A model generated the notes under the pieces. The model saw only the letters and a program-made list of their open reading frames with translations. It was not told the origin of the DNA and made no database searches. Of a DNA stretch of 64,000 nt, positions 1 through 56,745 are shown piece by piece (within the stretch, counting starts at the first letter, position 1; the number at the start of each line of letters is the position of its first letter). The position numbers and the translations under genes are program-made. The DNA is from Psammoneis japonica (lineage: Eukaryota). Location of the stretch: contig QPGO01000019.1 of assembly GCA_008632985.1 (NCBI GenBank), forward strand, positions 744,001 to 808,000, read 5' to 3'.

Positions 1-1020
1 TGCGGACGGTGGCATTGAAGTGACAAGCGGCAGTCTTGGCAACTTTGTCCTGTGCTGCGGAAACAACAATTTTTCCAACAGTGCCGTCATGATGGCATTG
101 GCCGTGAGCAAACGGGCCACAGTGGATGACACCGGAGCAACCATTCTTCCTCCTGGTGCTGCTGCCAGAGAGAAAGATGGAACAATGTGTTGCATGCTTT
201 GGTTCCATGCCAACGGCACTGTCAGCTTGGGAAATCTCATCATGCCAGCAACGTCACATCCGATTTGCAAGGTTGGAAGGAAATTGGTTGTTTGGAACTC
301 ATGGGTGGCAGTCACTGTTGAATTGAGGAACCCGGCAGTGTGACAGGAACCAATCAAGAGAATTGTGACATGCGCTGCTTTGTGGCACCCATTTGCAACG
401 CCTGCGACACGGGAGGACTGAACTTTCCTTTCAGCTGGGATTTGGAACGGATGGAGTTCAAAACCTGCTCTTTGATGCGGGTGGCACAATTTTTCCGGGA
501 ACAATGGTTTGTCCCATCAACAGTTGTGATGTGGAAGCCTGTGTGAATTCACACCCTCGTCTTGGAATGGTCACTCACATTTGTCTCAAAGAAACCAAAG
601 TGGTGGATCAGGTGACGGGCCGTGTTTTTTTTGGGAGTGACTTGTCAAAAGGGACCCGATCTTCCATGCCATGCCACCAAGGGACCTCGTCTTTGCGGCT
701 GTTGTGGGAGTCCTTCGGATTCGTTGGAATTTCTTTTGCGCAATTGTGTCTTTCCCAGTGGTGAAGAAGAAGTCACTGGCTCTCCCACGAAACAACCCAC
801 ATCCTCCGCCTCCTTTTTGCCAACTTGGACAATGCATCTCATGGTGGTGACCCTGTTGGTGACTCTCATGTCGGCAAAACAATGACACCACACATCTCTG
901 TTGCAATAAATTCATGGGGATTGCAAAAACTCTCAACAATGAGTCCAGATGAGAAGAGTGCAGTGACCATCCAGATTTGAACGGAGAAACCAGCACAGAG
1001 GTGTTGCATTGCGAAACTGC
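1..1020. other. TpA-depleted degenerate block (origin unidentified)
   Basis: Almost no TA dinucleotides until ~1023, where TA reappears abruptly (aggtagaatg...caggtagtaa agtagagg). ORFs in all frames are Cys/His-rich and nearly Tyr-free. Confidence 0.7.
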
Positions 1021-1387
1021 AGGTAGAATGATGCTGGCAGCAGGTAGTAAAGTAGAGGACGCGATTCACATCATTTGAGATAGCTAATGTGAAGCAGAAG
1101 CTCTGCTCAAGTTGAAAGGAATCGAATGTTGCAACATGGAAACAGTCTTACACAAAACTTTTAACTTGGGCGCGCAGGACCGTTTTGACACTTTTTTTGC
1201 CAATTTTACGAATTTTTATTTTTGATGTGACATTCCGATAAACAACCCAAAAAGACGAAAAATAAAGCGCGCCAAAACGTTGGCCCACATGGACTGCGCA
1301 TTTTTTTTTTCCAACACACATTGAACATCATAACGCAGACACAACACACAACACACAATACAGGCATCAAAAGGTCGACAACACATC

Positions 1388-2452
1388 ATGGGAAAGAAAA
1401 GCCGTCGCAACCGCATCAAGGGCAAGATCAAGTCAGCGGTAAATGTGCCTTTAGCTCAAGAAGAAGACAATCATGAGATCGTGGGCAGCATGCAGGCTGT
1501 GGTCTTGAAATTGCGAGGCGACTTTGTGAAGAACGCTTCGGCCATCATGGTGGAGCTCCTTCGTGCCTTGAACAAGGACACGACTCGTGCCGTTTGGGCG
1601 TTTGTCAAGGCTGGAGGGATTGATGGTATTCTTGTCTTTATGCTAAAGATTCGCAATGACCCACTTTGCATGTGTGTCTGCTGCACGGCTCTTTCTGTAG
1701 TTGCAAATAGCTTGCCCAAAAACGCCTGTGCCGCCGCGATTGCTCAGAGCGGCGGAATACCAACTATTGTTCAAGCTATCCGCCTTGTAATCATGTTTGG
1801 AATTCCAAAGGACATGGAAACGACCTACATGAAATGTATGAGTCGCGGTGTGGGCCTCGTGGGAGAGTTGGCGAATGAAGACGTGACGGCCGTACAACGC
1901 GCTGGTGGCATTGCGGCTATTGTCGAAGTCCTGCAGTATCCTTTTACAGATGAAGAAACGAAAAGGATGATGCATCACAGTGCTGTACACTCGCTAGTCT
2001 CAATCATGATGGCGACAAGAGCTGTTGATCTCCCGAGTGTCCTTGCGGAAACGATCCGTTGCGGTGGAGTTCCCACCCTCGTCCGTTGCCTCAAGCAGTA
2101 TCCCCATGATTTGGATATTCAAGCACCCGGATGCGCCATCATGGCGGTGCTTGCCAATCCACAAGTGGGTGGTAATCCATCTGCAGTCCTTGCTGCAGGA
2201 GCGGACAGTGTCATGGAGATGGCTCTAAAACTGCACAAGGGAAACTACGACATGCAGTCGTACGCAGCGGATGCGCTTTTCTCGTTGAACGAGGTCGTTC
2301 CTCAATGCCAGTGTTGCGGAAAAAAAGCCAAGGATTTGATGGTGTGTTGCCGGTGTGAAATTGCTTGGTATTGCAATAATAATTGCATTTTGAGGGACTG
2401 GGTGAAGCACAAGGAGGCGTGCAACCACGCTCGCTGGAAGCATCGCTACTAA
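1388..2452 (+). CDS. Armadillo-repeat protein with C-terminal MYND zinc finger
   Basis: Single 354-aa ORF. ARM-like motifs (FVKAGGIDGIL, AQSGGIPTIV, RAGGIAAIV, RCGGVPTLV) and C-terminal CQCC...CCRC...YC...C...W..HK..C matching zf-MYND. Confidence 0.85.
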   Translation: MGKKSRRNRIKGKIKSAVNVPLAQEEDNHEIVGSMQAVVLKLRGDFVKNASAIMVELLRALNKDTTRAVWAFVKAGGIDGILVFMLKIRNDPLCMCVCCTALSVVANSLPKNACAAAIAQSGGIPTIVQAIRLVIMFGIPKDMETTYMKCMSRGVGLVGELANEDVTAVQRAGGIAAIVEVLQYPFTDEETKRMMHHSAVHSLVSIMMATRAVDLPSVLAETIRCGGVPTLVRCLKQYPHDLDIQAPGCAIMAVLANPQVGGNPSAVLAAGADSVMEMALKLHKGNYDMQSYAADALFSLNEVVPQCQCCGKKAKDLMVCCRCEIAWYCNNNCILRDWVKHKEACNHARWKHRY

Positions 2453-3329
2453 CCCCCATGCTTGATACCGTTTGTGGAGAAATCCATAATTTTGTGTCGA
2501 CCCTATTTGCTTCGATGTATGTGTTCAAGATCATATAATGCACTCTTTTGTGAATCGTTTCACCTGCTTGGAGCCGGGGAAACGTCACGACAACGTGCAT
2601 GCTTTGGGCTATAGTTTCACTCGCATACGGGCCTTCGTACAAGTGTTTTCGAAAGATTTGTTTCGCTGGCTTGTAGTAGCCGGTAAGACGTTCAGCAGTC
2701 AGGTACCAATATGCATACCATTGAGTGTTGTGGCTATAATATAGAGGTCTCAGTTTTTGTGTCACTTTCAAGAATGTGTTGGTATTTTAAATATCTATAG
2801 CTTGCTGGCTCTGATCGTTGCTGTGTGAGTAAACCTCATACTTTGGATGGAGCACAAGGTGCAGTTGTAGGAAGAAAGCAAGCTACAGGTGGCTGGAGGA
2901 CTTTTTCTAGACGCACGCCGAAACTGGTGAAGAAAGGGACCACTTTCTGACCCCAGTAGGCTGCAAGGGTGTGATTCAGAAAAATAAATTACTGAAGTGC
3001 CGCTGAAAGTCGTTTTCATAGCAGTTGGGAGCTCTCACAGTGCACACTGACATGATCGAATGATCGTTTAGCTAAGAGCAGAGAGAGCTGTACGGTAGTG
3101 TAGCTTCGCCTTTTTCGAGCGAATGAGGGCACGATAAACACCAACCAGCTAGAGTAGCTTCTCTCTACTAGAGTAGAGCTACTCTCTCTAGATAGTAGAG
3201 AGTAGTTAGCAACGAAAGATGGTGCAGTACAAGTACCAACCTTGCATTCTTGTTACAGTATTATCCCTGACCAGGGTTTTCCGGTACCAATGACCACTGA
3301 GGACATTGAAAACATTAAAATGTTGAGGC

Positions 3330-4414
3330 GCTGTGGGATGCCACCGCTCGGATGACGCAAACCCCTTGAATATTCTGACGCAGTTTTTGACCAACATAAC
3401 CGGCACCGTTGTCGTACATAATAACGACAAATCCCGCGACAGCCCTACCCTTTCCCGCGTCCTCCATCGCCTGCCGTGTTTTCACATATCCTGCTAACGG
3501 CTCTTGAGCTTTGTATACACGAAATCAGCAGTGGGGGGCATTTCAGACTCAACTTGCTTCAGTTCCAATGTCACCACACTCGTGTCGGAACTAAATGTGA
3601 CATCTGTCCGCTTTCCGGTCGCTGGCAATTTGCCCTCTTGGCTTGTCCGTGCAATGTCCTGCAGAATGTCATGAGCCTCCGTGACGACGTGAGACTGGAA
3701 TTGAAGCTCCAAGACGTGATCATTGGAGTCTGATGAAGCCCACCCCATGAGTCTTGCCATGTTGCTTTGCGAAATGGAAGTCACAAAGTCCACCAATGTC
3801 TCTTCACCATGGGCACGCAAATCTTCCGCGGACTCCAGTGCAACCAACTTTTCCAACGAAGCTCGCAAGGTCTTCAGAAGGGGTTTGAGCAGGTTCTCGT
3901 GGTGGAACTCAGATGCAATGGTGAAAGCTGGGTTGTCGGTTGATGTCCCCAAGGCTGACACCACACCAACATGAACTGGCAAAGCAAGGTGGTCACTGAT
4001 GTCAATGGTTTCTTGCAAGAGATTCTCCAAACTCAGCTGCTCCTTGATCTCATGTCTTGGTCCTGAAGCTGTCTCCCCATCGGCCAGTTTGTTTGCCACT
4101 GGGCGCAGGTTCCTGCCATTGCACAAGACGTTGAACAGCAATGACGGAACCGGCTCCCATGCCAAACCTCCTGGCACCTTGCCAGTGGATGAGAATTTTT
4201 GTCGTTTCGTTTCCTTTGTTGGATCCAGCAACACATTCATCATGTGATTGACACCTCCGGTGTGAGAGAGAGGCTGACTCTCTGGAAATCGAAGGTCATT
4301 GAAGTTGCGCTTGAGCAAAGTCTTTGCCAGCTCCAGTGCACTCACTGGAAGTGACCCAGCCAGTCCGGCGACCCAATTTGCAAATTGCCCTGGTGTCGGG
4401 GTCATCCAATGCAC
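3330..4414 (-). pseudogene. Degenerate PD-(D/E)XK nuclease-like gene, copy A
   Basis: ORF 3494-4414 ends in GKRTDVTFSSDTSVVTLELKQ (R-x-D...E-x-K nuclease-like motif). It continues after a frameshift as ...QEPLAGYVK...AVAGFVVIMYDNG. His/Cys occupy expected Tyr positions (SEFHH here versus SEFYR in copy B). Confidence 0.55.
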
Positions 4415-4971
4415 ACAGTCAACAACAGGAAAGAAAATGAATGCTTTGTGGTCACAAGAACAAGAAGTCTCTGCTGTGGCCCAAGAATCATTGTTGTTGT
4501 TGTTGTCATCATTTCAGCAGTGGCTTGTTGTTGTTTTGCCATTGTTCCTTTGTTCATCGGCGCGCCACCTTTCTTCCCCCAGCTCCTCTTTCCCATCATT
4601 CCAACGGTCTTCTTTGACAATTGCAAGTAAAGCAGCAGTGACACTTTGTCAACAAGGCACTTTCACAAAGTTGCGGACGTCCATTGTGTCTTTCCCTGCC
4701 TGAGGCAGGCCTGGGCTGGAACCCGGTGACAACAAGACTGTCGACAACCAAAGGAGGTCACCAAGAAGATCTCATGTCATTTGCTTTCTTCACCTGACTT
4801 GGAAGAAGGAGGTGTGAAATGTCTAAATGTTGGAACAAAAAGAGCAGTTGGCAACGAAAGATGGTGCAGTGCAAGCACCAACCTTGCATTCTTGTTGCAG
4901 TGTCATCCCTGACCAGGGTTCTCCGGCACCAATGACCACTGAGGACATTGAAAACATTAAAATGTTGAGGC

Positions 4972-6056
4972 GCTGTGGGATGCCACCGCTCGGATGACGC
5001 AAACCCCTTGAATGTTCTGACGCAGTTTTTGACCAACACAACCGGCACCGTTGTCGTACATGATGACGACAAATCCCGCGACAGCCCTGCCCTTTCCCGC
5101 GTCCTCCATTGCCTGCCGTGTTTTCACACATCCTGCTAACGGCTCTTGAGCTTTGTGTGCACGAAATCAGCAGTGGGGGGCATTTCAGACTCAACTTGCT
5201 TCAGTTCCAATGTCACCACACTCGTGTCGGAACTAAATGTGACATCTGTCCGCTTTCCGGTCGCTGGCAATTTGCCCTCTTGGCTTGTCCGTGCAATGTC
5301 CTGCAGAATGTCATGAGCCTCCGTGACGACGTGAGACTGGAACTGAAGCTCCAAGACGTGATCATTGGAGTCTGATGAAGCCCACCCCATGAGTCTTGCC
5401 ATGTTGCTTTGCGAAATGGAAGTCACAAAGTCCACCAATGTCTCTTCACCATGGGCACGCAAATCTTCCGCGGACTCCAGTGCAACCAACTTTTCCAACG
5501 AAGCTCGCAAGGTCTTCAGAAGGGGTTTGAGCAGGTTCTCGCGGTAGAATTCAGATGCAATGGTGAAAGCTGGGTTGTCGGTTGATGTCCCCAAGGCTGA
5601 CACCACACCAACATGAACTGGCAAAGCAAGGTGGTCACTGATGTCAATGGTTTCTTGCAAGAGATTCTCCAAACTGAGCTGCTCCTTGATCTCATGTCTC
5701 GGTCCTGAAACTGTCTCCCCATCAGCCAGTTTGTTTGCCACTGGGCGCAGGTTCCTGCCATTGCACAAGACGTTGAACAGCAATGATGGAACCGGCTCCC
5801 ATGCCAAACCTCCTGGCACCTTGCCAGTGGATGAGAATTTTTGTCATTTCGTTTCCTTTGTTGGATCCAGCAACACATTCATCATGTGATTGACACCTCC
5901 GGTGTGAGAGAGAGGCTGACTCTCTGGAAATCAAAGGTCATTGAAGTTGCGCTTGAGCGAAGTCTTTGCCAGCTCCAGTGCACTCACTGGAAGTGACCCA
6001 GCCAGTCCGGTGACCCAATTTGCAAATTGCCCTGGTGTCGGGGTCATCCAATGCAC
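4972..6056 (-). pseudogene. Degenerate PD-(D/E)XK nuclease-like gene, copy B
   Basis: Paralog of copy A (ORF 5136-5819), with the same frameshift plus an additional in-frame stop upstream. Confidence 0.55.
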
Positions 6057-7598
6057 ACAGTCAACAACAAGAAAGAAAATGAATGCTTTGTGGTCACAAG
6101 AACGAGAAGTCTCTGCTGTGGCCCAAGAATCATTGTTGTTGTTGTTGTCATCATTTCAGCAGTGGCTTGTTGTTGTTTTGCCATTGTTCCTTTGTTCATC
6201 GGCACGCCACCTTTCTTCCCCCAATTCCTCTTTCCCATCATTCCAACGGTCTTCTTTGACAATTGCAAGTAAAGCAGCAGTGGCACTTTGTCAACAAGGC
6301 ACTTTCACAAAGTTGCGGACGTCCATTGTGTCTTTCCCTGCCTGAGGCAGGCCTGGGCTGGAACCCGGTGACAACAAGACTGTCGACAACCAAAGGAGGT
6401 CACCAAGAAGATCATGTCATTTGCTTTCTTCACCTGACTTGGAAGAAGGAGGTGTGAAATGTCTAAATGTTGGAACAAAAAGGGCTCAGAAATGTGCACC
6501 CGTGGTGGCAACAAATGCATCAAAGTGGAGAAGATGTCACGAAACAACAACAATGTTGGCAACAAGTGTCAAAGTGTCGCTGTTGTTTCACCAGATTCCA
6601 GCAGCAGCAAAAAGCAGTCTCAGTCTCTTTCTCCAACTAAAAGGAAAAAAGAAGTTTTCACTGTCAAAAACCAGACTTGAGCCGGGCTCCATTAAAAACT
6701 GCCAGGTGGCCAGGAAGATGTTTGGAGTCTCGCAGAGGAACTGTGCCAAGATCGTGCAGCACCGGTCGATCATTTTTGGTGTTGGGCAGTGTCATGACTC
6801 AGCAAATTTGGAAGACTCTGTGCCTGGCAGAAATTGTGCATGCTTGAGTCCCACACATTCCTGGCTCTCCATGCTGGAACACCATGTTGAATTTTCAAAT
6901 GATGGGCATGAGCCAAGCCAACAAAGACATTGATGTGTGGATGAGACCATCCTTGACAATGGCTCTGCCCCCAGCACAGCAGCAAGCCAGAGACTGGCAC
7001 ACAATGTGCAACCAGAAAAAACCAAGATTGATCTGTTGAGGAACACAAGAGTGGACACTTCAGATGAAAACTCTGCTGTGCCATGCCTGGATCATGGGGG
7101 ATGCAAAGCTTGGATCACAGAATGACATGGCAAACATCCTCAATTCAATGGATGTGAAGAGCAAGCACTGTGTGACTTGCAACAACCAAGTGGCAGACAA
7201 GTTGCTTCTGACTGCTGGACAAGAAAACTGGCAAGCAAGCAAGCAGCGGCATTCAAAGTGAATGACACTAGACTGCAAACCTTTGCATTGAGCCAGCAGA
7301 AGGTCTTTGAGAGTGACCACACAAAAGATCTCCAAGAAAGTCAGTTGCACATGAGCATGCTGTCAAAAAACAACAAGAAGAAGGGTGAAAAGAAGCACTG
7401 TGGTTCCGACAGTGGAGCAGAATTTGGCCACAGAATCATTTTGATTCTTTTTCTGTTGATTTTACAAATTTTTGTTTTTCATGTGACAAAAAAAGAAAGA
7501 GTGCCAAAATGATGGCCCACATCCACCACGATTGTCATCAACAAGCCCATCAACACAATGCAAATGCACAACACAGCCGCCAAAAGATCAACCACAAA

Positions 7599-8115
7599 AT
7601 GGGAAAGAAAAGTCATCTCAACTGCATCAAAAGCAAGATCAAATTGGCAATGGTGGCAAACAATGTGCCTTTGGCTTGAGAAGAAGATGAGCAGATCATT
7701 GGCTGCATCATGCAGGCTGTGGTCTTAAAACTGCTGGGAGACTTGAGCAATGTGAATGCTCCAGCCATCACGGGGGAGCTCCTTTGTGCTTTCAACAAGG
7801 ACAGCAGCACTTGTGCCATTTGGGCATTTGTTGATGCTGGCTGGGTGCATGTTGACTGCATTCTTGTGTCTGTGTGAAAGATTCACAATGACCCGCCAAG
7901 CACGTGTGTCTGCTGCACAGCTTTTCTTGTGGTTGCCAACACCTTGCTGAGCAGCGCGCCTGTGCTGCCACAGTTGCTCTGAGCAGTTGAGTTTATCTGA
8001 CCATTGTTGGAGCAATCTGCCTCATGATCATGTTTGGAGCTCCTCCAAAGGACATAGAAATGACCTGTGTGAAAAATGCATGGGCAATGGTGCACAAGTT
8101 GCGCAGGTGAGGGAA
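7599..8115 (+). pseudogene. Degenerate, truncated paralog of the ARM-MYND gene (1388-2452)
   Basis: atgggaaagaaaagtcatctcaactgcatcaaaagcaagatc matches atgggaaagaaaagccgtcgcaaccgcatcaagggcaagatc, and catgcaggctgtggtctt is shared. It has a TGA at 7677, indels and TA loss. The flanks are also homologous (7460-7520 to ~1205-1290; 8180-8530 to ~2935-3285). Confidence 0.85.
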
Positions 8116-8704
8116 GAGAAAGCAAGCGCCGCAGGTGTGTGCTGCCCCTTTTTCCAGATGCATTTCACCACTGGTTGAGATTGGGGCCAGTTTCTGACCC
8201 CAGCAGGTTGCAAGGGTGATCACTGCAGTGCAGCTGAAAGTCATCTTTGCAGCAGTTGAGCTGTCATTGGAGCTCTCACAGTGTGTGCCAGCCAAGGACA
8301 TGATCGAACGATCATTTGGCCACAAAGCAGAAAGCTGCATTGCAGCCTGGCTTTGCCTTTTTCGAGCAAATGAGGGCACGATAAAACACCAACAGGCTAG
8401 AGCAGCTTCTCTCTGCTGGTGGAGCTACTCTCTCTAGTGCTCTATTTAGCACGGAACTAATGTGGCACAGGTGCCAACCTTGCATTCTACCGGTGCTGAG
8501 CGAGCTGTCACCTGATCAGGGTTTTCTGGGTTGCAGGCGCCCGCCGCGCGCCTGCGCGCTCACCGCACTGCTCATCTCTTCTCTTTGTTTCATTTCTCTC
8601 GCGTGAAAAACTGCTTCAACGCAAATAGCTTCACTTCTGGGTTCTGGGATTACAGAGCCGCTTTGATCTGTATCTTATCGTGTTGATGCATCACCTTTAG
8701 CAAG

Positions 8705-23326: not shown

Positions 23327-24300
23327 TTAGCCAAGAGGGATGAGAACACATCGATGAATTGGCGTTCCATTCATTGTGCAAGCAACCTCCGTCTCAGTTC
23401 TCCCAGGGGTTTGGAGTAGCGGAGTCTCACACCACCCTTTACCGTGAGCTCGTTCTCCCCCCATTGCAACCCACTCCTGTGTTCGTTTAGGTATTCGAAA
23501 ATTGTTTCCGCTTGACTGTGGGTCCTTTTCTGTACCATGGCATTTGTCGACAACACAAAAGCCAGTGTCGTGACAAGCAGCACGGCACATCCATAACGCA
23601 ACATCATCCTCACAGTTTGACTGCATCAACAATTTCCCACAAAAGCTTGCACCGGTGCCATCCTTTGCCTTCTTGACTGGCACTTGCCTTGCCAACCACA
23701 GCAGCTCAGTTGTCACCATCATCATGAAGCCACTCATGACATTTGCTGGCAGTCGCGAGTTTCCGTCAGGTTGTTGGATGCTGTCATCAGCAGCAAAAGC
23801 AAAGTCAGCAGAGAAAGGCATGCAACAAGGAGTCAGAAATTGCAAGAGACAAAGCTGAACAGGACCAGGACAAGACTCAACAACTTGTTGGAGAAAGGAT
23901 TCTGTGTCTTGTTGGAAAGAGTGAAGCTTGTGCTCCAATCCCCAATGTTTGGCAAGCCTGCAAGCACATCCAATGCCGAGTCCATTGAGCTCAACTCCAG
24001 CACAATTTGACCATGACCAGTTTGCCAAGGGATTGACCTTGACCAAATCCGTGCTGGTGTTGTCTGCATGCAACTGCCCAAGCAATGACATGCCCACTCC
24101 ACAGCCCACATCCACAACAAGAGGACTGTCTGGGTTTTCAAAGACATCTGGACAAACTGCGGTTGTTGATCTGCCATTTGAGTGAGCAGTTGGTGGCCCA
24201 ATCCATTTGTCTCACTCCCATTGAGCTGAGGTGGCTTGAAAAAAAGCACAGTTGCTGTTGCTGATGAGTGGAGAATTGCCAAAGCATGAGGAGACTGTGG
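23327..24300 (-). pseudogene. Degenerate SAM-dependent methyltransferase domain (TrmB-like)
   Basis: DVGCGVGMSLLG (motif I), LQFLTPC, GKLLMQSNCEDDVA and GRTETEVAC. Cys/His replace expected Tyr and there are frameshifts. Probably the 3' part of a longer decayed gene. Confidence 0.65.
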
Positions 24301-27300
24301 TCTGAAAAAAGATTGAGAAGACAACTGCCGGCACCAATGCCCTTGTGATCACCCTTCTTGTTCTCTAGATCTTTTGTCTCTAGAGCCCATGTTGCAGCTT
24401 GCTCCAGGGCTTTATGATGCTGCAATCCGGCAGCTCCAAAGCATTCCAGGACATGCCAAATGTCCTTTGAATGACAAAATGCTTGCTTGCCAGATCAGTT
24501 GAGCTCCTGAGCAGCCACGCCAGTCACAAAGATTCAAACAAAGCTTGGTCAGCTGCACCTGCAAAAGCAAACCACAATGCTGCATTGGCTGCCTTTTGAC
24601 CTTGCAGGTTGCACTTGCCCATGGTCTTGAGATGCAGAAGCGGCTCTGGCAATCATGATGTTTTTGCCTGCTTTGAGGCTCACAATTCTGGGGTTCATCA
24701 TTTCATTTTGTGGTTTTGATTTGTGAGATCATGCAAATTGTGAGACAAGTGCTTTGGCTCTGGTCACTTTTCTTCCTTTGGCATTTGGTGAAGCAGTCTG
24801 AGTGACCACAACCCCAGAAGACTTCACCAGAAATTGGCCATTGGGCAGCGACAGACTGTGATTCTTTCGAATTCCAGTGAACTCCATCTTGTTCAAGACA
24901 TGACAACCTGAAGGCCAAAAGAGGATGCAGTGCATGGTGTGCTGCAAAAACTTGTTCTACACCAGGCTTCGATGAAAGTCAAGCAAACTTGCTTCAGTTC
25001 TGACTTTCCATTCCAACCTGCACCATTGTTCAGAGAACACTCTGCATGCTGCTGCTTCAAGAAGCAGGAGGGTTTAGCCAGTGTGTGCAGTTGGACAAAC
25101 CGGCTGAGGCTCTGGCCCAACAACAACAGCCACCCCTGGCTGCACCTTGGTGCCAGTGTGTGGGCTGCAAGCTTGTGCTCAATGTGACACCTTGCCTCTG
25201 GGTGCCAGTGGGGGGTGCAAAGGCACACCATTGTCAGGTGTGCGTTCCTGTCATTTTTGCTGCGCTGGTGTTGCAGCACTCTGCTGCTGTCTCTGTCTTG
25301 CTTGCTCAGTGAGAAGCCAGCAGCACAAAGAGTGTGCCACTTGCCAGCTCACAGCTTTTGTCTCTGACAGCAAAAAAGTGTTGACTCTGGCGCGCCAGCA
25401 CAGTTTCTTCACCTGGCTCACTCACTGTTTTCTGAAGAGCATTTTGCTGCAGCCAGCTGGCAACAGCACTTCTTCCTGTCCATTGTCTTGCTTTTTTGTC
25501 CTTTTTTGCAGCAGACAGCCCCGGTGCTGTGCACTTTGTTGCAAGAGAGCTTTTTTCTCAAGGCACTTCATGCCCCCCACAAGCTTCAATGAAGCTGGTG
25601 GTGGTTGGAAAATTTGCACAGCAGCTTGACATTCTGCCAATGACACACTCGCAAACCCACAAAAAAGGCACTCTTCCTGAGCTCCTTGGTCTCTGCAACA
25701 TCTTTCTGAAAAAACATGAAACAACCAGCTCACTTTCCCACATTTCCTCTGGCTAAATCACAGCCTTTTGGCACATGCTGCCTTGTGTCTGGATGCCCAT
25801 TGTGTGCAGTGCATTGCCAAACTTGTTGCAACCCCGGCATTTTTTCCCAAGCACTTTGTTGACAATGCTGGTGCAGGAAACAATGGCATGTTGAAGCAGC
25901 CACAAAAACTGTGCCTTGTCTTTGCTGACAACAACCTTTGCACACATGCTGAGAATGGCAGAAAAAAAGACAATGTCTTTGCAGGCAGTTGCCAGACAGA
26001 CAAGGGCTTTGTCATTTCAAAATGTGCACTTGCCATCAGCCCTGCTGTGATTTGCTCCTTCAAAGCCCCCAGCTTGTTTGTTCAAGCAGACAAATTTGTC
26101 TGGAGAGGGTTCCACCCACACTCTCACCTCTGCCACACACTCAAGTGACAGATGATTGCTTCCCTCAAATGCCCTTGCACAGAGCATCTCAATCCAACAA
26201 AGTGGGCTTTTTTTTTTGAATCAACAAATGACTGGGGGATCACCAATGCAGCTGCTTGGGGACATCCTTGAGGAACATCAAATTTGGCTTTCAGATGTTG
26301 TCAAAAACACTTCCAACCACAGAGTTTGTTTGGCAGAAGAAGCTTTTTGGGAAGCAGGGGGGCTTCAGAGGATGACAGCTGTGGGCTGGGCCACCCAGCT
26401 CTTCTTCAGTTGATCCTTCTCCAGAGACAGTGCCTGGTGCAAAGATGCTGTCAAAAAATTGGAAGTGCGCAAGCTTTTTGTGAGACCACTGCTGCCATCA
26501 TCACCAAAACATTGTCTCTTGTTGCAGATGTCACCCAAAGTGCAGCTGTCCACAGCAAAGTTGTCAAATGCTGAGTTTTGTTTGGCAGGCAGCCAGCACC
26601 TCTGCAACCTCTGACAATTGTGCTGGGCACTGCAGCAAAAGCTGTTCTCAACTGCAGTGTAACTCACTCTGTGTCTGCCAAGCTTGCCACCACAATCACT
26701 GTCACCCAGCAATTTTCACAAGGTGGTGAGTGCTGCTGCCTTTTTGTGGCATCACAGCCAACCCACAAGGCCGCCAACATGGCCCACACATTGAGCTCCT
26801 GAGAACAAGGTTGCTGGTGTCCTTGGAGGGAACCCAATGGCAGCAAACAACCTGCCACACCTTTCAGTTTGCAAGCCATGGATGATGCACTCACTTCCAC
26901 CATGATTTGATGCACCTCTTCACAAAATCATTTGTTGATGAGGGTGCAAAAAGTTTTCTCATTGTGCAGCACTTGTCATCTCTGCTCCTCTCCACTTTTG
27001 TCAAATCTGCACAAGAATGAATTTTTCATGGCTCACAACCTTCCACCCCACAACTCAAGTCAGTCTTTGCCCATTGCTGGTTGACAGGCTGCAAAAAGCA
27101 GCTTGCTGTGGCTGAGCAAAAAGCAAGCTTGGCTGGGGAGGTCACCATCTCAACTGGACCTGACCTTTGTGATGCTCTCATCAATTTCATCTTTCTTTCT
27201 TGTTCCTCTTGTTTGCTGCTGCTCAAGAGTTTTGCTTTTGGGTTGGGGAACAGGTGATGGAGACAAAACAGTGCTGAAAGAGGTGCAAGATGCAGCTGCT

Positions 27301-27650
27301 GCTGTGCTCCTTGCACAGAAGATGCTGAAGAGAGACAAACAAATGTGATTGCTGCTGGATCCCATCTGATGAAAACAATTTAAAAACAAGGAGCCCAAAC
27401 TCTGTGTTTGTGACAGTTCAAAGGGGAACCACATTTTAAGTGGCTGCCGGGTGGAGCAAATGAGGCACTCATGAAGTGGACAATCATGGTGTGAGGATTG
27501 AGCCAGAGGAACCCTTGGTGGCAGCCTCCATTGTGCCACCATGGTGGACTTGCCATGCACCTCACTTTTTGTCTTTGTTTCTGTGTTTTTCTCTGGCTTT
27601 TCTCTTTTTGTTCTCTTGCTCGTGTCTCTGCATGGCACAATGATGGTTTC
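23600..27650. other. TpA-depleted block containing a decayed host-type gene (possibly helical-repeat/PPR-like N-terminal part plus methyltransferase)
   Basis: TA nearly absent. Minus-strand fragments such as NEKTFCTLIN and PSTIVRGC...PN...TTL weakly resemble PPR repeats after restoring Tyr. Confidence 0.45.
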
Positions 27651-28003
27651 CATGCCGGTTCTAGAGAATCACCAAGGACAGACAAAAAGCGAAGGTTGGG
27701 CCCTGCGGCGGGGCTAGCCTGTGATGGGTACAGTAAGTTACCAGGCACGAAGGAACAAGGATAGACGCCGGCAGTGGATAAAGGGCGTACTCAGCACTAT
27801 GAAAAGCGAAATCTAGCTAGGAATAATCTGAATATCGCACATGAGAAGAGACGAGCGCATGAACAGAAGGAAAGCTCTGCACAAAAGGAAGCAAATTTCT
27901 GATGCAGCTCTTCTGCAGAACAATCGTCCCTCTAGACATGCTGTTAATCAAGCATATTCAACAGGTTCTAGTTGCATGAATCATGGTGTCATCTATTTCA
28001 CCT

Positions 28004-29863: not shown

Positions 29864-30489
29864 TAGCCAGTAACTGGTGAGTGTTTGACGAATAGTCTTG
29901 ACTCGATTTGTAGCCTTTTGGTTTGTGCCACTTAACGATCAGTCGTTTTCTCCATCGCTATTTGTACGACTATCGACTATTCGTGATTTCCTTTCGTCTA
30001 GATTCTACACTTCTACTCTCTACTCTAGCTAGCTACTCTCTAGCTAGCTAGTAGAGAGAGCACTTCTTGTAAAGTTTTATGCAGCAAAGGAATTGCGCTT
30101 CTTTGAAGTGTTCCAAGGAAATTCAGATTTCAAAAAATGACCGACGTGAAATCAAAGACTGCAACATTAATTAGTTACGAAAATTTAACGAATTTAGGGC
30201 AATAAGTTGATAATTTCTGGAATTGCGAATGCCAACACACTTATTAAATGTCAGAAAGACAAGATGTGCACACTTAACAAATGTCTCTATAAATGTTGCG
30301 CTCACAAAACACCGGAGAAATCGATCGGAGAAACGACCCAGCCTGACGTGCCGCGCCTGCCAATCTACCGCACTTCAGGTCGGGTCTATTAGGGCCTACT
30401 CGGCGAGAGGATCTCAAATCCGGTCTCAAATGGATTTGCACCACCTTCGGTCATGAAGTTAAATGTGTACACACACATCTCTAAAAATG

Positions 30490-31910
30490 TCATGTTTGGT
30501 GCAATTGAGGCATGCGCACAACTTGCGCACAGCAGCGCAATGTCGGACAGACGACAGGCCGACGATGACGATGACATTTTTCTGATGCTCTTGCAAAACG
30601 ACTTTGCAACAGGCACTTGACATGTTGATCAATGACACTGTGGGGAACACTTGCATGTAAAGAAAGTCCCCCGGACGAACTCACAATCATTCGACATTCG
30701 AGTGCACAAAACGATCGTCAAAAAACAGAGCTCCTTGTTGGTGTGACGTTTTGCTTTCGAACAGAGGTTGCTGGCGGGGACTTTCATGACTGAATGCATT
30801 CTTAAACTCAACAAACTAAATGTCCACAAGACGCGTTCCAGCTCTGGGTGGGACCTCGCACTGCTGAACTGTGACATCGACAGTTTTTTGGATCGCACCG
30901 CATGTCGCACACGTAGAAAGGTACGTGACTTTTCTGAAATTTTGTGTCATTTTGTGGTGCACTCACTGAGCGATCCGTCCAACAACTTTTGACATTTTTT
31001 TGTTCTGCGCCATTTGCAAATGTCTTAAGAATGGCACAGGGCAGGCGGATTGACGAAAATGTCAAGCGGCAATGGTCACAATTGTGCCACAAACTTGGTC
31101 ATTTGTTTGATGTTGAAGATGAAAATGTCCGTTGATTAAATTCTCGTAATGCGGAGCTCGCACGTAGAATTCTGCGGGCCAAATGTCACAAAAAGTCCCA
31201 CCCAGGACTGGAACCCGTCACAATGACAAAAGACTCTGGGACACGTCGCTGTCATCGCTGTCGTTGCAACAACGCACCACCGTCACGTCGCCAATTTTTG
31301 GCGATGAGGCACGCAGCACCCTGCACGTTTCTCGTGCAGCAGAAAATCCTGAAAAATCAAATTGTCGTGCCTCCACCCCTTCGTCATGCGAATGCCTCAA
31401 GGCATGCGCAGAACTTGCACACAGCAGCGCAATGTCGGAGAGACGACAGTTGTGCTTTTTTTGCGATTTGCGCAACAGAATTGCCGTCGACGCCGACAAT
31501 GACGATGACATCTTTCTGACGCTCTTACAAAACGACTTTGCAACAGACACTTGACACATCAATCGACGACACTGTGAAGCACACACATGTGTAAAGAAAG
31601 TCCCCCGGACGAACTCACAATCGTTCGACATTCGAATGCATGAAACGATGGTCAAAAAACAGAGCTCCTCATTGGTGTGACGTTTTGCTTTCGAACAGAG
31701 GTTGCTGGCGGGGACTTTCATGACTGAATGCATTCTTAAACTCAACAAACCAAATGTCTGTAATGACAAAAGACTCTGGGACACGTCGCTGTCATCGCTG
31801 TTGTTGCGACAACACATCATCGTCACGTCGCCGATTTTTGGCGATGAGGCGCGTAGCGCGCTACGCGTTTCTTGCACAGTGGAAATCCTGAAAAATCAAA
31901 TTGTCGTATT
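30490..31910. repeat. Tandem duplication (~0.5-kb unit) whose first copy is interrupted by a MITE
   Basis: 30510-30829 matches 31400-31763, and 31220-31368 matches 31760-31908. Confidence 0.85.
30830..31219. mobile_element. MITE copy 1 (390 bp), TIR GACGCGTTCCAGCTCTGGGTGGGAC, 4-bp TSD ACAA
   Basis: Right end gtcccacccaggactggaacccgtc is the near reverse complement of the left end. acaa at 30826-30829 and 31220-31223. An empty site is present in the duplicate at ~31752-31770. Confidence 0.92.
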
Positions 31911-32439
31911 TTCACCGTTTTGTTCTGCGATTGCCTTAAGGATGGATCGTTGTTTGGTGGTCGATTTTATTTAGAGCTCCCAAACATTTAAAAATGACCC
32001 GGATCTGTCGTGCTGACAGTGCGCGCGTTCGCCAAAAAAAAAAAATCAGCGACAGGTCGGAACTTTGTCTGTTTCTAAGACAACACAGAATGCACATGTG
32101 ACGGTTGCGACCATGCGCGAGGATGTGCAGCTTAACGACTGCAGACATGTCCACAGCCGGTCAAATGCCAATTGTCGGCATTTCCTGGAAAGTTGTGGCT
32201 TGTCTGCCGCAACAGTCCGATTTTGGCGGAAAATGGCGGTTTGTCGCATGTGACAACCAAGGCAACTATGACAATTGGCGTTTGAAGGTTAAAATGTGCA
32301 GTTCACACAAAGGTCTGACAGCCCTGATGGGGGCTGGACACACTCACATGTGTTTGGGGGTGCTCAGAGGCTTCTCGCAAAATGACACGGGCGAAGTGTG
32401 GGGAAATTCGAAAATCACGAGCCATTTAAAAAAACAGTG

Positions 32440-33420
32440 CTAAACATCGATCCAGCCTTGGCCGGCCAACCTGCCATTGAGTCAAGCCTTGCTGCCTTGT
32501 TGCATGACTCCAGTGTTGTTGTCAGGGCAAACATCAAAATGTTGGACAAGCTTCAGCTCTCATCATCTCTTCCATTGAGTTGACTTTGGGGATCCAGGAG
32601 CTTTTGCAAATGGTTGGTGTGTGTTGGTGGGTCAGCAGGCAGAACATTGACTCACAATGCCTTGCCTCATGGCACCAGCATTGCCACTGCCTGATCCAGT
32701 TGGTGCACTGGAGCAGGAGGATCCCGTGTGGCAGCTGCATGTGATGTCAACAAAGTGGAAAGCAGAGCTTGTGCAAAAAAAAGCACAGCACTTTTGCTTG
32801 CTGCCACGCTTGTGTCAGTTGCGCAGGCAAAGTTGCACAAACAGCTTGGGAGGGTGAGTGCACAAATTCATCAAATGTGCTGTGTCTGAGTCAGCCCTGA
32901 ACCAACAAAGCTTTTCAAGAGTTGATTTGCCCCACCCTTCTGCAAGTTGTGCGTGGATCATTCACTTTGAACAGGGGCACATCCAACAGGCTTTCTTTAG
33001 AAGCAACAAGTTTCTCCCACCTCCTGCTTTGAAGAAATGAGTGTGCATCTGGAGCATGACAGCAGCTGAGTTCTGATCTGATCTCACCAAAGCCAGCATG
33101 CTGAGCAAATGTGTGTGCACTCACATGACCACATGCATGCACACATGTTTGCCAACCACTTTTGGTGATTGGCGCACTTGCTTCACACCAACAGTTGGGC
33201 AAACCCCAGAGAGGAGCGACACACTCACAGTTTTGCAGAACCTGTTGATTGCCACACTGCAAACCTTCTCTTTGTCTCCATTTGTTCACTGTCCCAGTCA
33301 TGTTTGCTCCAAATGTCAAGAAAGAAGGTTGTGCCACTTTGGATTGTTTCTTTCCCCACATGCAATGGCATGTCACTTTGAGTGGTGTTGCATGTGCTTG
33401 GTGTCTGCAAGGTTCGGTCA
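32440..33420. other. TpA-depleted degenerate coding-like sequence, unidentified
   Basis: TA nearly absent; Cys/His-rich ORFs in all frames; TA returns at ~33425-33500. Confidence 0.55.
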
Positions 33421-33664
33421 GCTTAAAGCTGGTGCAATGCCGAGAAGCTGTACTTGCAACTCAAATAATTGACACTCCTAGTCTGTACACAAGGCTAAGA
33501 GTCCATAATGACATTGCGATTTCCAATTGTTAGAAGTATGATTGGAATGCTGGCATATAATTCCTGTTAAGATTCCGAATGGCAAACTCGTAATCGTAGC
33601 TTCCATCTCGCTACAGCTAAGGTATCATAGAGAGGACTTTAAACCCAAGCACGGCATATTTCGA

Positions 33665-47953: not shown

Positions 47954-49689
47954 TGCTGCGCGTCGGAATCGGAGATCGTCTCGAGAGGGCTTAAACTTAT
48001 AATGACTATTGATAATAATTTTGGCATTGTGACAAGATACTTTCTATTCAGGTATGAATGAAGTAAAAGCGCCATGGGACATTATGATGTGCTGTGTCGT
48101 CGTAAGAGCAACACACCTCCGTTTTCGCCTCAGGATTGAGCAGGCTGTGTATAAAGACATGACAAAAAGTTGCAATCAACTGAACCGTGAGAGGATCCAG
48201 GAGGTGTCCAGTGGAAATCCAAGATTTGATGCCATGGCATGCTGGGTTCTGTTTTGTCAGTTGGGCACCATCGGCCATCAATCCCAAGAAGGCTCACAAC
48301 TCAGCCAGCCAGCCTTCTTTTCTCTGCCGCCATGTTGGCAAAAAAGCTTTGCACTCCATGCCAGCAGCAACAACAACAACAACAACAAACAACAAACAAC
48401 ATGGACAACAAGAAGGAGCAAGTTGAGAAAGGAAGCGTGCTGTGAGACAACTCTCGCACCTCTTGTTTGAGACTGTCCGGAAAGATGAACATGGCGCTGA
48501 GAGCAAATCATGCCCTCAGTTTGTTGGAGGTGCATTGAAAAATGTGTGGACACCCACCACTTTGTGACATGTCAGGCATGAACCTTGTTTCAACATTTCC
48601 CATCTCAACAAGAGAACTTGCGGCAGCTTGGCAGCGTGCTCTCCCTCAAGTCAATGCTCTTGGCCAGCCACTGCTCCACTTTGCTCCTGTGCTCACACAA
48701 ACAGCTGGGCTTGCAACTCACTGCTGGAAACCCTGGTGCCAGCAAGGTCAATTCTTTGTTGGTTGTTTGCCATTTTGCATGAGCACTGTCAGACTGACTT
48801 GCAATTTGAGGAGAGTCCCCGAGAGTGGGCCAACATCCCCAGCTCTTCCATGCGGCCTGCATGACAACTGGTTTGCTGGTGAGCACCAGCTGGCCAGACT
48901 TGCTGATGACCTCTCAAGGCATCAAGTGTGGAGACTGGTGATGACACTCAACTGCCTCCATTGTGTGAGATGAGATTGGCTTGCTGCTGCTGAAGAATCA
49001 TGTCTTGAGAAGAAGGGTGCAAACAAGAGAGACAACAGTCCAGCTGGGCACAGATGCCAAGAGAGCAGAGGAAGGCAGCCACCCAAAACTCTTGGGATGT
49101 CAGCTTCTTCTGAATGGACAATCTTTGCACTCAGAAGGTCAAGCTCATCAGTTGCCAGACTCCATTCACAATGACTTGGCTCCCCCAAGCACCAAGTCTC
49201 CTTCATTTGTGCCAGCTGCAGCTCCAGAGGGAGACCAGACCAGCACACCCAGATCATGACCACTGGTTGTTGATGGTTGGGACAATTTTCTCAAAGCTCC
49301 AGATGCACCAGGTTGTCATGGCTGTGTTGAAGGAAAGGACCGCCTCACCAGCAATGGGCACAGTTTTGAATGCGTTGCCTCCCCCATTCTGAGCTCATCA
49401 TGTCAGCTCAAGTCTGGTTGTCAAATGACAGAATTTCATGTGCACATGAAGTTTGCAAACATTTGTGGTGGTGTGGAATCAACAGCACATGTTGTCCTTT
49501 GTCCATGCACTCTTTGGGCTCTTTTGCAAGCAGAACAAAGACTTGTGACCCTGACACACCATCATGTCATGAGGCAACGGCTTGGCACCTCATGCCAAGG
49601 AGTTCAAGGAGGCCACACATTTAGAGACAAATGATTTGATGCATTGCAGCTTGTTTGCTTCATTGTTGCAAGAGTGGACACCTTTGGAT

Positions 49690-51250
49690 GCTGATGTTTC
49701 AACTGGCACTTGGGTGCTCAAGATCAAGAGGCACCATGATGGATGACTCAAGAAGCTCAATTTACAGTTCTGCACACAAGGTGATCATCAACAATGTGGC
49801 ATTGATTTCCTTGAGACCTGCGCTCCTGTTGTTTGGCACCAGAGTGCAGCTTCTTTGTTGACAAGTCTCTCAAGAAATTTGTGCAGTTTGGCATTTCATC
49901 AAGTTGATTGTGCACTTGCTTTTGCTCAAGCTGACATTGTTGATTGTTGAAGATGTGCGTGTGTGTGTCAAATTTGCCAAAGCCATTTGAGTTTGAGAAA
50001 GAAGGAGAGGACTGCATTTTAAAGCTTGACTCAACAATGGCCTCTCTGTGGACTGCATCAACAGCTGCAATGACTTGGCTCCGACATTCATCCAAGGGCC
50101 CAGACAGATGCAGATTGTCCTCTGGGGCAAGAGCAATCCTTGCCCACTCAATGGCAAAGACATCGTTTGCCTCACACATGTTGATGGTTGTCTGCTCTTC
50201 ATGAAGGACACTGCTGAAATCACCAACAAAATTGTAAATGAGCTCAAGGCAAATGGATGTGAGCTTGATGTCCAAGACAATTGGAGTCGTTCACTGGTGT
50301 TGACATGGGGCCAGGGGAAAAGAGGCTGGGACGACTGCTCATCAAAGAGCCGTGGGTGTGTGCCAGCCACCATGGAATGCTCATCTCTGAGCTTGACTTG
50401 GTGTTCACTTTAACTGGCCAGAGGATCATCATCACATTCCATGCAGGGACACTCAACCGGCAACAACCACTGGCAAATGGCTCTGGCAACACTGACTCAG
50501 TTGTGGCTGCACTTTTAAAGCCGCCAAGTTCAGAAGCACAACATGTCTTAACAGCGCTGGCCATGGTGACCACTGTCTCTGCTGCCACTCCCACTGCTGC
50601 TCCTCTGCTTCTCAGATGTGTCCCAGTGAGCTGTGCTGTCTCCACAAAGCAAGTGTCACCATCCAGCAAACAGCTGCCTTGATGGGGCATCTCTTCTGAC
50701 CTTGAGGCACCGGGGTGACTCATTCCCCAATCCACCAAACTTTGGTTTGCACCAGTCCATCTGACTGCCCATGCTGCAAACATTGCTGGCTGCCTCCAAA
50801 GTGAGCACAATGTTTGGCAAACCACACCATCCAAACTTGGCAAGTTTGGACCTCAGCAGTCCAACGCATGCATGCTCTCCAGGCTCAACTCCAGCAGAGT
50901 GACCCACTTGTTGTGGTTGTTCCAAAACAACATTTTCTGCCATCAAGCAGTTCCTCTCAAATTGCTTTGCAGATGGGGGTTAAAAATGGCTGCATCATGG
51001 AAAGAGCAGGCACCGCACCACTCAAGAATGGCAAGAGCCTCAAAAACAAGCAGAGACTTTCTTGTGGTGGAGATTCTCCAGCCACAAAAAGTCTTTCATC
51101 ATTGAAAACAAAAATGACTTTTTTGTGATGATGCACTGCGCTGCAACTTCGAAAGTGTCTGAGACCAACATCATGGAAAATGACTTCTCAAGACACAACA
51201 GTTTTGCACCCCACCTCTGTTTTCTCTTTGTTGCTTCTTGCTGGGTGGGG
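49690..51250 (+). mobile_element. Ty1/copia LTR retrotransposon relic (RT-RNase H)
   Basis: Decayed copia RT motifs: TWVLKIKRHHDG*LKKL...QGDHQ, QVDCALAFAQAD, SLCGLHQ (SLYGL.Q) and IVCLTHVDGCLLF (YVDD). RNase H-like IAGC...SKL and terminal LLLAGW. Confidence 0.85.
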
Positions 51251-51400
51251 GCAAAGTCAAAGTGTCAGAGGACAGCACACCGCCTCAGATGTGAGCACAA
51301 TGCCTCATTTTTGGCTCTGGTTGGGGCTCAATTCTCTCTTTTTGATGCTGCTGACATGGCTCCATGCATTGCACAGCGGATTTTTGTTTCATGTAAAAGA

Positions 51401-51847
51401 GAGTGCAATGTGCAGCTGCTGGCAAGAGTCAGCGCATCACGGCGACGTGTTGCAGCCTTTAAATGTCACAAAGGGCATGACAAAACAACCTTTTGTCTGC
51501 ATGCATGCTGCGTTGTGAATTCACAGCGGAGTGGTTCATCGCAACCATCAGGCAGGAGGCCAGGGGTTCGAAACCCTGAGTGGGAGTTGTCTGCAGCAAC
51601 GTTGATCACTGTCGAACGCGTAAAACTCTGTGCAGTTCTGCATGTTCCTTCGTGCGTACCCACACTGTTCCGCCAAAACCGTGCAGTGTCAGTGCACGTT
51701 GGCAAAGAGCCGTGTGGACGCGTGATGCATGGGGAGGAGTGCAACACACAGCTGCCAACAAGAGTCAATGTGTCACGGCGACGTGTTACAGCCTTTAAAT
51801 GTCACAAAGGGCGTGACAAAATAACCTTTTGTCTGCATGCATGCTGC
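51401..51847. repeat. Two ~110-bp direct repeats (51401-51511, 51737-51847)
   Basis: Shared cacggcgacgtgtt.cagcctttaaatgtcacaaaggg..tgacaaaa.aaccttttgtctgcatgcatgctgc. Lies downstream of the copia relic, possibly LTR-derived. Confidence 0.85.
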
Positions 51848-55553: not shown

Positions 55554-56353
55554 CATGCTCAAGTGTCCGGGCAATCCGCTCAAACGCGCAACAGCGCGAT
55601 TTCAGCGGAAATGAGCGGACCTTTGTCCTCTACCTTAAGGCGGGTCAGTCGCTACTTTTTTTAGCTTGAATTCGGTCGAACAGCTCGTGTTTTGCATGAT
55701 TTTTCCTGAATTTCACCGTGCTTCACCGTGGTGAAAACAACAAGCCATAAGTCTGTGACGGAGGTGGTCCGTCCACCAACTCTCATTTGTTTTGTGTTTG
55801 TTGTTTGTCAAAGATTGTGCATGCATGAAAAGTTGATAGGCGGCACGCTGCGTTTTTGAGAAACATCGATGATTGTCATCATCGTCGTGCTTCGATCGCG
55901 GTGTTGATGGTTCTCGTTTTGTGCGCGATCGGGTGTGACTGTGAACAACTCTTGTGTTCAAAAACAAGCACCAGAAAAATCTCATTCAAGTGCAACTGCA
56001 ATTCCAGGACAAACGCGGGGGTGACCCACCTCAAGCAGTTTTTAATGCTCAGGACTAAAAAGCAATGGAGACCAGGACATTAAAAAAACGGGTGACAGCG
56101 CGCATGCGCAGAAAAATTCACAAAATTCCGATTCAAACACACCTGCCAACCGTCACCTCCATGACCATCAGTTTGTTGCGTCCGTCCCATCCCGGTTTTC
56201 TGCATTGTTGCTGCATGACTCATCAGAACCCCATTTCATCCATCATGGGCACAAACGCTGCTGATCACTGATGTGTCACGTTCTCGAGAAAGAAGGAATG
56301 TCGTTTGATGACTCATGCACCATTTTGCGGTAAAGAGTGACGGTGCACGGTGC

Positions 56354-56745
56354 GACGTGTTCCAGCTCTGGGTGGGACCTCGCACCACTGAACTGTGACA
56401 TCGACAGTTTTTTGGATCGCACCACATGTGTCGCGCACGCAGAAAGGTGCGTGACTTTTCTGAAATTTTGTGTCATTTTGTGGTGCACTTGTTGAGCGAT
56501 CCGTCCAACAACTTTTGACATTTTTTTTTACAGCGCGATTCTTAAATGTCTTGAGAATCGCGCAGGGCAGGCGCACCTGCAAAAACGTCAAGCGGCAATG
56601 GTCACAATTGTGCCACAAACCTGGTTGTTCATTTGATGTTGAAGACAAAAATGTCCATCAATTGGATTCTTGTAATGCGGAGCTCGCAAGCAGAATTCTA
56701 CGGGCCCAATGTCACAAAAAGTCCCACCCAGGACTGGAACCCATC
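56354..56745. mobile_element. MITE copy 2 (392 bp), 4-bp TSD GTGC
   Basis: Collinear with 30830-31219; gtgc at 56350-56353 and 56746-56749. Confidence 0.92.

Follow-up and report, generated by a model that had tools for sequence, protein, structure and literature searches.

A 64,000-nucleotide stretch of Psammoneis japonica contig QPGO01000019.1 (positions 744,001 to 808,000; hereafter the window) contains sharply bounded domains in which the dinucleotide TpA has been almost entirely replaced by TpG and CpA. We consider it probable that these domains record a real mutational process, which converts TpA to TpG or CpA in place and is limited to the domains. The process can be followed letter by letter in a head-to-tail tandem duplication with a unit of 1642 bp, whose copies A and B are 97.6% identical over 1647 columns by self-BLAST (the coordinates of all features are given in Table 1). 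The left edge of one purged domain (domain 2, edge at about 3517-3570) falls inside copy A and inside one contiguous pseudogene. The first part of copy A (A1) therefore stands outside the domain, whereas its twin in copy B (B1) stands within it.

Global alignment of 3199-4840 with 4841-6482 gave 37 substitutions and four gap columns, and substitutions 1 to 18 all fall within 3203-3517. Read from A to B, these 18 comprise ten TA>TG, six TA>CA, one CG>TG (at 3468) and one other T>C (at 3279). All are transitions, and 17 are A:T>G:C changes, 16 of them at TpA. Counted over 3199-3520 (322 bp), A1 has 19 TpA and 18 CpG sites, compared with three and 17 in B1, which corresponds to losses of 16/19 TpA and 1/18 CpG. 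Thus 16 of the 18 substitutions sit on the 38 TpA bases among 322 (binomial p=1.7e-13), while only one of the 129 A/T bases outside TpA was changed. The rest of the duplication (A2/B2) has 19 substitutions over 1249 ungapped columns, including ten at the 43 CpG sites, one at TpA and eight elsewhere. At 3903-3904 the polarity is swapped, with TG in copy A and TA in copy B.

To the right of the domain edge, the positions without TpA coincide in the two copies, as do the TG/CA letters found there, which indicates that these right parts had been purged before the duplication. The TpA kept in both tandem copies (in CTAA, GTAA and CTAA contexts) likewise predate it. The duplication then set a TA-normal B1 between two purged blocks, and B1 subsequently shed 16 of its 19 TpA. 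A1, at the domain edge, shows no TpA changes at all. Immediately left of the tandem unit, at 3140-3200, there is a run of CTAGAGTAG-like words (ctagagtagc...ctactagagtagagctactctctctagatagtagagagtag).

To judge from four independent lines of comparison, TA is the ancestral state and the change is TA>TG/CA; at the polarizable B1 sites, TA proved ancestral in 8/8 cases. One comparison uses P, a degenerate paralogue of an Arm-repeat/MYND gene and of its 3' flank. The two loci (1334-2452 and 7553-8530) form a segmental duplication, in which P lacks about 1 kb, including the MYND finger. P overlaps the first 90 bp of the tandem unit and has the copy-A base at all five alignable differing sites (3203, 3208, 3229, 3234 and 3279). 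The Arm/MYND gene is an intact, TA-bearing open reading frame (ORF) of 372 codons with Pfam domains. Its protein had no homologue at E<=0.001 among the 8000 candidates of a word-indexed search. When the gene and its flank are compared with P, five of 36 aligned TpA are kept and 31 lost (25 of them now CA or TG), and four of 39 CpG are kept (26 now CA or TG); retention of the other dinucleotides is 51-78%. In P, TG or CA also replaces several TAs of the CTAGAGTAG-like run.

A second comparison is provided by the pseudogene fragment carried in both tandem copies, which belongs to the AAA-ATPase_like family PF09820 (61 representatives in the 50% library). The best match is P0121, with 78% identity and the name 'Bacillariaceae sp.'. 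The copy A fragment has a frameshift near 3518 and is without the N-terminal ATPase part, and its final 53 codons fall in A1. There, A1 reads VY..LAGYV..GAGYV and matches the homologues, whereas B1 reads AH..LAGCV..GAGCV. Two conserved Tyr have thus become Cys through TA>TG ('LAGYV' to 'LAGCV' and 'GAGYV' to 'GAGCV') and one Val has become Ala, so that the protein family sides with A at all three informative A1 codons (Tyr, Tyr and Val). The opposite case is found at 5542-5550, where copy B keeps the family state 'FYR' and copy A (3900-3908) has 'FHH'; copy A was therefore also hit after the duplication, at one TpA and one CpG. In the purged part of the pseudogene, none of five conserved Tyr columns is kept (now H, H, H, R and S). 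The 34 differences from the family consensus in this part include 11 single TA>CA/TG changes, three CG>TG/CA changes, six other transitions, 12 transversions and two that need at least two changes.

Repeat pairs of the window agree with this direction. Five such pairs inside domains show 25 TG-vs-CA double differences against 3.05 expected (p=4.5e-15), and two repeat pairs in normal DNA show none. Such an excess is the pattern of palindromic TA (or CG) sites that decay independently in each copy. The preliminary description of this DNA, based on a hand alignment, had given the same 18 substitutions and the same polarity reversal near 3900. It had read them as a near-saturating, TpA-specific loss in the TA>TG/CA direction that hit both copies independently and that deamination of 5-methylcytosine (5mC) could not explain. 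The comparisons above bear out each of these statements, as well as the count of 16 changed TpA sites among 19; the CpG total alone, put there at about 19, has to be corrected to 18.

We calculated dinucleotide observed/expected ratios (O/E) in 1-kb steps across the window and delimited domains by a two-state segmentation on TpA density. Altogether, seven domains cover 23,870 of the 64,000 bp and contain 103 TpA. The TA O/E is 0.02-0.14 in the domains versus 0.58-0.64 in every genic segment above 250 bp, and the TG and CA O/E are 1.5-1.95 versus 1.1-1.4 in these segments. The longest TpA-free runs measure 1576, 1470 and 1036 bp, the last of them in domain 2. The CpG O/E is highly variable among the domains, ranging from 0.12 to 0.92. 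In domains 4 and 6 CpG is nearly intact (0.79 and 0.92) and TpA almost gone (0.14 and 0.10), which indicates that the losses of TpA and CpG are separate processes and that TpA goes first.

All recognizable genes of the window are located in normal segments and none within domains. They encode the Arm/MYND protein, an ABC-G transporter, an alpha-L-fucosidase, a sulfatase, an SDR protein, and WD40 and ankyrin proteins, and they include uninterrupted genes of 492-998 codons. Domain edges lie approximately 100-1000 bp away from the nearest long ORF. The domains are presumably silent chromatin. ORFs within them reach 339 aa and are unusually long in all six frames; most of these are spurious, because TpA-free DNA is without TAA and TAG stops and Tyr codons, and automated annotation will probably report false genes there. 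A 295-aa ORF at 50984-51868 has an Atlas recognition of 856 and no credible family. As to a foreign origin of the purged DNA, both identifiable targets are pseudogenes of host-type families, and heavy decay could mask a foreign source.

The letters themselves are supported by a public sequencing run (X1; platform not recorded), whose Logan contigs have a word depth of 25-125. They match the window with no differences over 2600-3315 and 3342-3477. An X1 contig over 4813-4957, also free of differences, bridges the A/B junction and reproduces the first eight converted TpA sites of copy B together with the T>C change at 4921. The TA states of copy A were confirmed at 15 of 16 sites, one being discordant, and a 12.8-kb X1 contig runs across the right edge of domain 2. 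This match makes a base-calling artefact, a risk named in the preliminary description, unlikely. Runs X2 and X3 contained next to nothing that matches the stretch, and no RNA run was listed with matches to 2600-7000.

Over 6611-8800 the window and the 12.8-kb contig differ at 11 positions in 2190 bp, six of them C>T, which probably reflects either strain variation or the other haplotype of a diploid genome. One of the 11 is a TA>TG difference at 7995, the only hint of continuing activity. The X1 depth is single-copy across most of 2600-8800. It rises to 291 at 6947-7153 and 156 at 7154-7360, compared with about 60 nearby, with many loose ends and three skip joints, and 6947-7360 is a dispersed multi-copy repeat in domain 2.

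We used the tandem copies, P and the residual domain TpA to characterize the rate, strand and context of the change. B1 lost 84% of its TpA, while A and B diverge by 23% at CpG and by 0.64% at other sites. TpA decay is thus about 14-32 times faster than the CpG decay of this DNA and exceeds the per-base background rate about 300-fold, and its specificity for TpA over other A/T bases is at least 100-fold. CpG decay by way of 5mC resembles it in occurring in the same domains and in giving the same products (TpG/CpA), and accounts for ten of the 19 A2/B2 differences. However, it cannot remove TpA, it is slower by the factor just given, and it is uncoupled from TpA loss in domains 4 and 6. Both strands are about equally hit, without strand-coordinated runs. 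The outcomes were ten TG and six CA in B1 and 11 TG and 12 CA in P, the order of outcomes along B1 forms ten runs against 8.5 expected, and TG and CA O/E are similar in six of the seven domains.

The residual domain TpA have a strong context bias (chi-square p=2.5e-26). Relative to the average, residual TpA is over-represented in TTAA (5.7x), CTAA (2.6x), CTAG (2.3x) and GTAA (1.3x), and under-represented in ATAA (0.63x), CTAC (0.47x), GTAC (0.37x), ATAG (0.26x) and ATAC (0.07x). No ATAT is left in the domains versus 122 in normal DNA. Thus, YTAR contexts (TTAA, CTAA and CTAG) are spared and RTAY contexts erased. A model in which an A is hit independently on each strand, with the 3' neighbor ranked T>C>G>A, reproduces the order of context survival, and the direct events follow the same trend (T 10/20, C 16/38, G 8/30 and A 5/18).

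TpA hypermutation as such is not new, and the opinion of the preliminary description that nothing of the kind had been established must be given up. One recent precedent exists, the preprint by Mettrop et al. (bioRxiv 10.64898/2026.01.13.699255), according to the main text of which the chlorarachniophyte Bigelowiella natans acquires TpA>TpG/CpA mutations de novo. Of the 302 new substitutions in mutation-accumulation lines, two integrated viral regions received 231. These were confined to TpA, were almost always A>G/T>C, and arose at approximately 1000 times background and in some lines only. The B. natans genome is reported to contain 124 TpA-poor, CpA+TpG-rich clusters, and the authors propose an ADAT2-like adenine deaminase. 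In our literature search, which covered sources outside subscription journals and bioRxiv supplements, this preprint was the only description of the signature. The accessible text of a Phaeodactylum mutation-accumulation paper (PMC6604790) reports a GC>AT bias and has no mention of TpA.

The process in the window shares with that of B. natans, as the preprint presents it, an almost exclusive A>G/T>C change at TpA giving TpG/CpA, its restriction to sharply bounded regions at rates orders of magnitude above background, and the TpA-poor, CpA+TpG-rich footprint in 1-kb windows. By the cluster rule taken from the preprint, 22 of 64 1-kb windows pass and form four clusters in 64 kb. There are also differences. 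The hosts are a diatom and a chlorarachniophyte, from different supergroup lineages. The B. natans targets are integrated viral regions, while the purged DNA of the window is devoid of genes, contains host-type pseudogenes and shows no recognizable viral or transposable-element domain. Depletion is near-total here (O/E 0.02-0.14) versus 0.45 in the nucleocytoplasmic large DNA virus (NCLDV) region of B. natans, and the B. natans mutations were measured de novo, whereas those in the window are known from fixed differences alone. By analogy, the two may be the same kind of process.

The placement of the window among diatoms, guessed in the preliminary description, fits the nearest named homologues of its proteins. 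Those of the fucosidase are raphid pennate diatoms (53-57% identity), as are those of the pseudogene. A metagenome scan with the fucosidase alignment kept 80 loci, all 27-50% identical, and found no close relative. Together with the uninterrupted genes of 492-998 codons, these homologues set the window apart from B. natans. Since the nearest named homologues are from raphid pennate diatoms, the window represents a second, distant lineage beside B. natans.

We propose a regional process that converts A:T to G:C at an A following T, on either strand, throughout the gene-free domains. CpG>TpG/CpA decay accompanies it in the same domains as a separate, slower process that varies between domains. 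As to the agent, our tentative candidate is a DNA-acting enzyme that would turn the adenine of 5'-TA into hypoxanthine by deamination and would be recruited or confined to silent chromatin. The mechanisms put forward in the preliminary description are indistinguishable from sequence alone. Adenosine deaminases (TadA, ADAT2/3, ADAR and TadA-derived editors) produce the matching change, A to I, which is read as A>G. The requirement for a 5' T fits the habit of TadA/ADAT, which act on A34, always after U33, and that of ADAR, which prefers a 5' U; early TadA-derived adenine base editors preferred YAC. We know of no case in which such enzymes act in vivo on domains of chromosomal DNA, save for reports on amphioxus and trypanosome ADAT2. 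Both reports are cited in the main text of the B. natans preprint (Mettrop et al.).

The same flank preference reads equally well as R-T-A, since TpA is palindromic, and could thus reflect a thymine-centred chemistry, in which a modified T, such as 5-hydroxymethyluracil (5hmU) from a TET/JBP-type enzyme, would give way to C through mispairing or faulty repair. In dinoflagellates, 5hmU is said to favor TpA and TpC. We regard this route as unlikely: a modified base is without support in this window, and we do not know of 5hmU opposite A as strongly mutagenic. In addition, adenine deamination is the explanation favored in the main text of Mettrop et al.

Another possibility is that duplicated DNA is recognized by homology and then mutated, as suggested by the terms 'repeat-associated' and 'reverse RIP' in the preliminary description, after repeat-induced point mutation (RIP). 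Fungal RIP is a C>T change, mainly at CpA, that creates TpA; it is homology-dependent and mutates both copies of a duplication. The process described here resembles RIP in its irreversible, dinucleotide-specific transitions that wreck non-genic or duplicated DNA over kilobase tracts. Moreover, it is seen most clearly in a tandem duplication, P and the dispersed repeat both lie in domain 2, and several domains contain internal repeats. However, RIP creates TpA where the present process destroys it, and RIP hits both copies, whereas here A1, identical to B1 at the time of duplication, was spared. In addition, the purging boundary is inside a contiguous pseudogene and not at a repeat end, and X1 depth is single-copy over most of the region. 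The NCLDV target in B. natans is also reported as single-copy in the preprint. Homology-induced targeting is therefore quite improbable. Targeting appears instead to follow position in the domain and not sequence homology, because twins of identical origin fared differently according to their position relative to the domain edge. In the same way, the intact Arm/MYND gene keeps its TAs, and its paralogue P, mostly in domain 2, lost 31/36. The scan of TpA and CpG O/E, proposed in the preliminary description as a genome-wide check and made here across the window, revealed TpA-purged domains to which the tandem repeat is incidental.

Error-prone repair synthesis of the pol-eta type, acting at WA motifs in repeatedly repaired heterochromatin, would match 17 of the 18 B1 changes (WA>WG, 16 at TA and one at AA). 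Nevertheless, A>T and A>C are both absent from the 18, which are transitions throughout. AA greatly outnumbers TA, but there was only one event among the 129 A/T bases outside TpA. Near-complete saturation would also be hard to reach via occasional repair patches, and we consider this explanation very unlikely. Still less credible is an artefact of modified bases miscalled and polished to TG/CA, or an import of DNA that had always been poor in TpA and CpG, even though the assembly platform is not on record and low UpA reportedly accompanies low CpG in RNA viruses (PMC3829696). Both twins recur in the X1 contigs (depth 25-125), which also span domain edges, B1 and P were converted in place from TA-bearing host sequence, and O/E values of 0.02-0.05 are far beyond any viral bias known to us. 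The direction of change cannot be read from two sequences alone, but a reversed polarity, with an original TpA-free state and RIP-like CpA/TpG>TpA mutation of A1 and the Arm/MYND region, is hardly conceivable in view of the ancestral TA at all polarizable B1 sites, the conserved Tyr codons lost in purged DNA, the intact TA-bearing Arm/MYND gene and the TG-vs-CA excess.

Other candidates were rejected. Had A1 undergone gene conversion by an intact paralogue, non-TpA differences would have been imported as well, and the non-genic 3199-3359 would be left unexplained. RNA editing followed by retro-copying does not agree with changes that occurred in place and on both strands in B1 and P. GC-biased gene conversion is without TpA specificity.

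Several points weigh against the account that we favor, a domain-limited process with an adenine deaminase as its candidate agent. It is drawn from fixed differences within one 64-kb window, with no mutation caught occurring, and the silent state of the domains is deduced solely from their lack of genes and their CpG decay, the latter suggesting methylation. None of the 65 domain ORFs of at least 110 aa reaches the Pfam curated cut-off (64 have no match and one has a sub-threshold match to DUF6155, 20.3 bits versus 27), and no viral or transposon domain was found among them, unlike in B. natans. X1 possibly derives from the same sample as the assembly, its independence not being proven, and the sole listed X1 contig over 3487 has C where the window has T. 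An A-centred T-A-Y preference is the same as a T-centred R-T-A preference on the opposite strand, so that the attacked base is not readable from the letters. A direct test of strand choice gave 19 cases for, 11 against and nine ties, which is not significant, and the contexts of residual TpA could in part be those of newly created TAs and not of survivors. Finally, ADAR prefers a 3' G, and position 35 is G, A or C in the tRNA substrates of eukaryotic ADAT2/3; the 3' preference found here (T>C>G>A, with pyrimidines first) mismatches both.

It is possible, though in our view rather doubtful, that diatoms have an active, chromatin-domain-guided DNA adenine deaminase that prefers 5'-TAY and irreversibly rewrites silent DNA, and that this enzyme, common to Stramenopiles and Rhizaria, serves an old system of genome defence or heterochromatin hardening. 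If so, it would remove every TAA/TAG stop, along with Tyr codons and regulatory words rich in TA, at about 300 times background. Should the process be general in diatoms, TpA-specific hypermutation would be present in a second, very distant lineage, and would turn from a single-species curiosity into a candidate for a widespread eukaryotic system of genome defence or heterochromatin maintenance. Dinucleotide maps could locate silent chromatin in unannotated diatom genomes, and an enzyme of such specificity would be attractive as an adenine editor of DNA that occurs in nature. Supplements aside, CpG, flanking bases and diatoms go unmentioned in the text of the B. natans preprint. Beyond that text, the window provides a natural experiment pointing to targeting by position rather than by homology or foreignness, a flank rule (loss at RTAY, survival at YTAR) with which any candidate enzyme has to comply, and, in the CpG decay of this DNA, a yardstick for calibration.

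Table 1. Features of the window discussed in the text (positions in the 64,000-nucleotide stretch)
Feature	Coordinates	Strand	Remarks
Tandem copy A of the 1642-bp unit	3199..4840		97.6% identity to 4841-6485
Tandem copy B	4841..6482		entirely within TpA-purged domain 2; alignment, self-BLAST, segmentation
A1, portion of copy A outside the domain, ancestral state	3199..3516		19 TpA, counted over 3199-3520
B1, twin of A1 within the domain	4841..5162		16/19 TpA converted after duplication
Arm-repeat + zf-MYND gene	1334..2452	+	intact, normal composition; TA O/E 0.44; reference for P
P, degenerate paralogue of the Arm/MYND gene + 3' flank	7553..8530	+	mostly inside domain 2
Pseudogene fragment in copy A, AAA-ATPase_like (PF09820) family	3360..4423	-	C-terminal ~320 residues
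Pseudogene fragment in copy B, same PF09820 family	5002..6017	-	extra CGA>TGA stop
Domain 1	1..1023		1 TpA; TA O/E 0.02
Domain 2	3517..8381		17 TpA/4865 bp; TA O/E 0.05; CpG O/E 0.41; TG/CA O/E 1.6-1.7
Domain 3	23595..27661		TA O/E 0.03; CpG O/E 0.12
Domain 4	30483..33423		TA O/E 0.14; CpG O/E 0.79
Domain 5	48153..51786		TA O/E 0.05; CpG O/E 0.24
Domain 6	55663..58143		TA O/E 0.10; CpG O/E 0.92
Domain 7	58899..63757		TA O/E 0.06; longest TpA-free run, 1576 bp

Three further features were observed in the window. Domain 7 contains a GC-rich tandem array at 59128-59689 with periods of 63, 126 and 192 bp (about eight copies of 63 bp), whose regularly spaced residual TpA are all in the CTAGAC context, a spared one. 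A 95-bp tandem duplication at 12652-12830 (1.9 copies, 89% identity), located in normal DNA in or close to the ABC transporter gene, has no TpA-type differences between its copies. Two adjacent paralogous cysteine-rich ORFs at 36074-37555 and 37565-38758 (minus strand) encode 494 and 398 aa with 31-42% identity, and both have weak matches to the WAP-type four-disulfide core.

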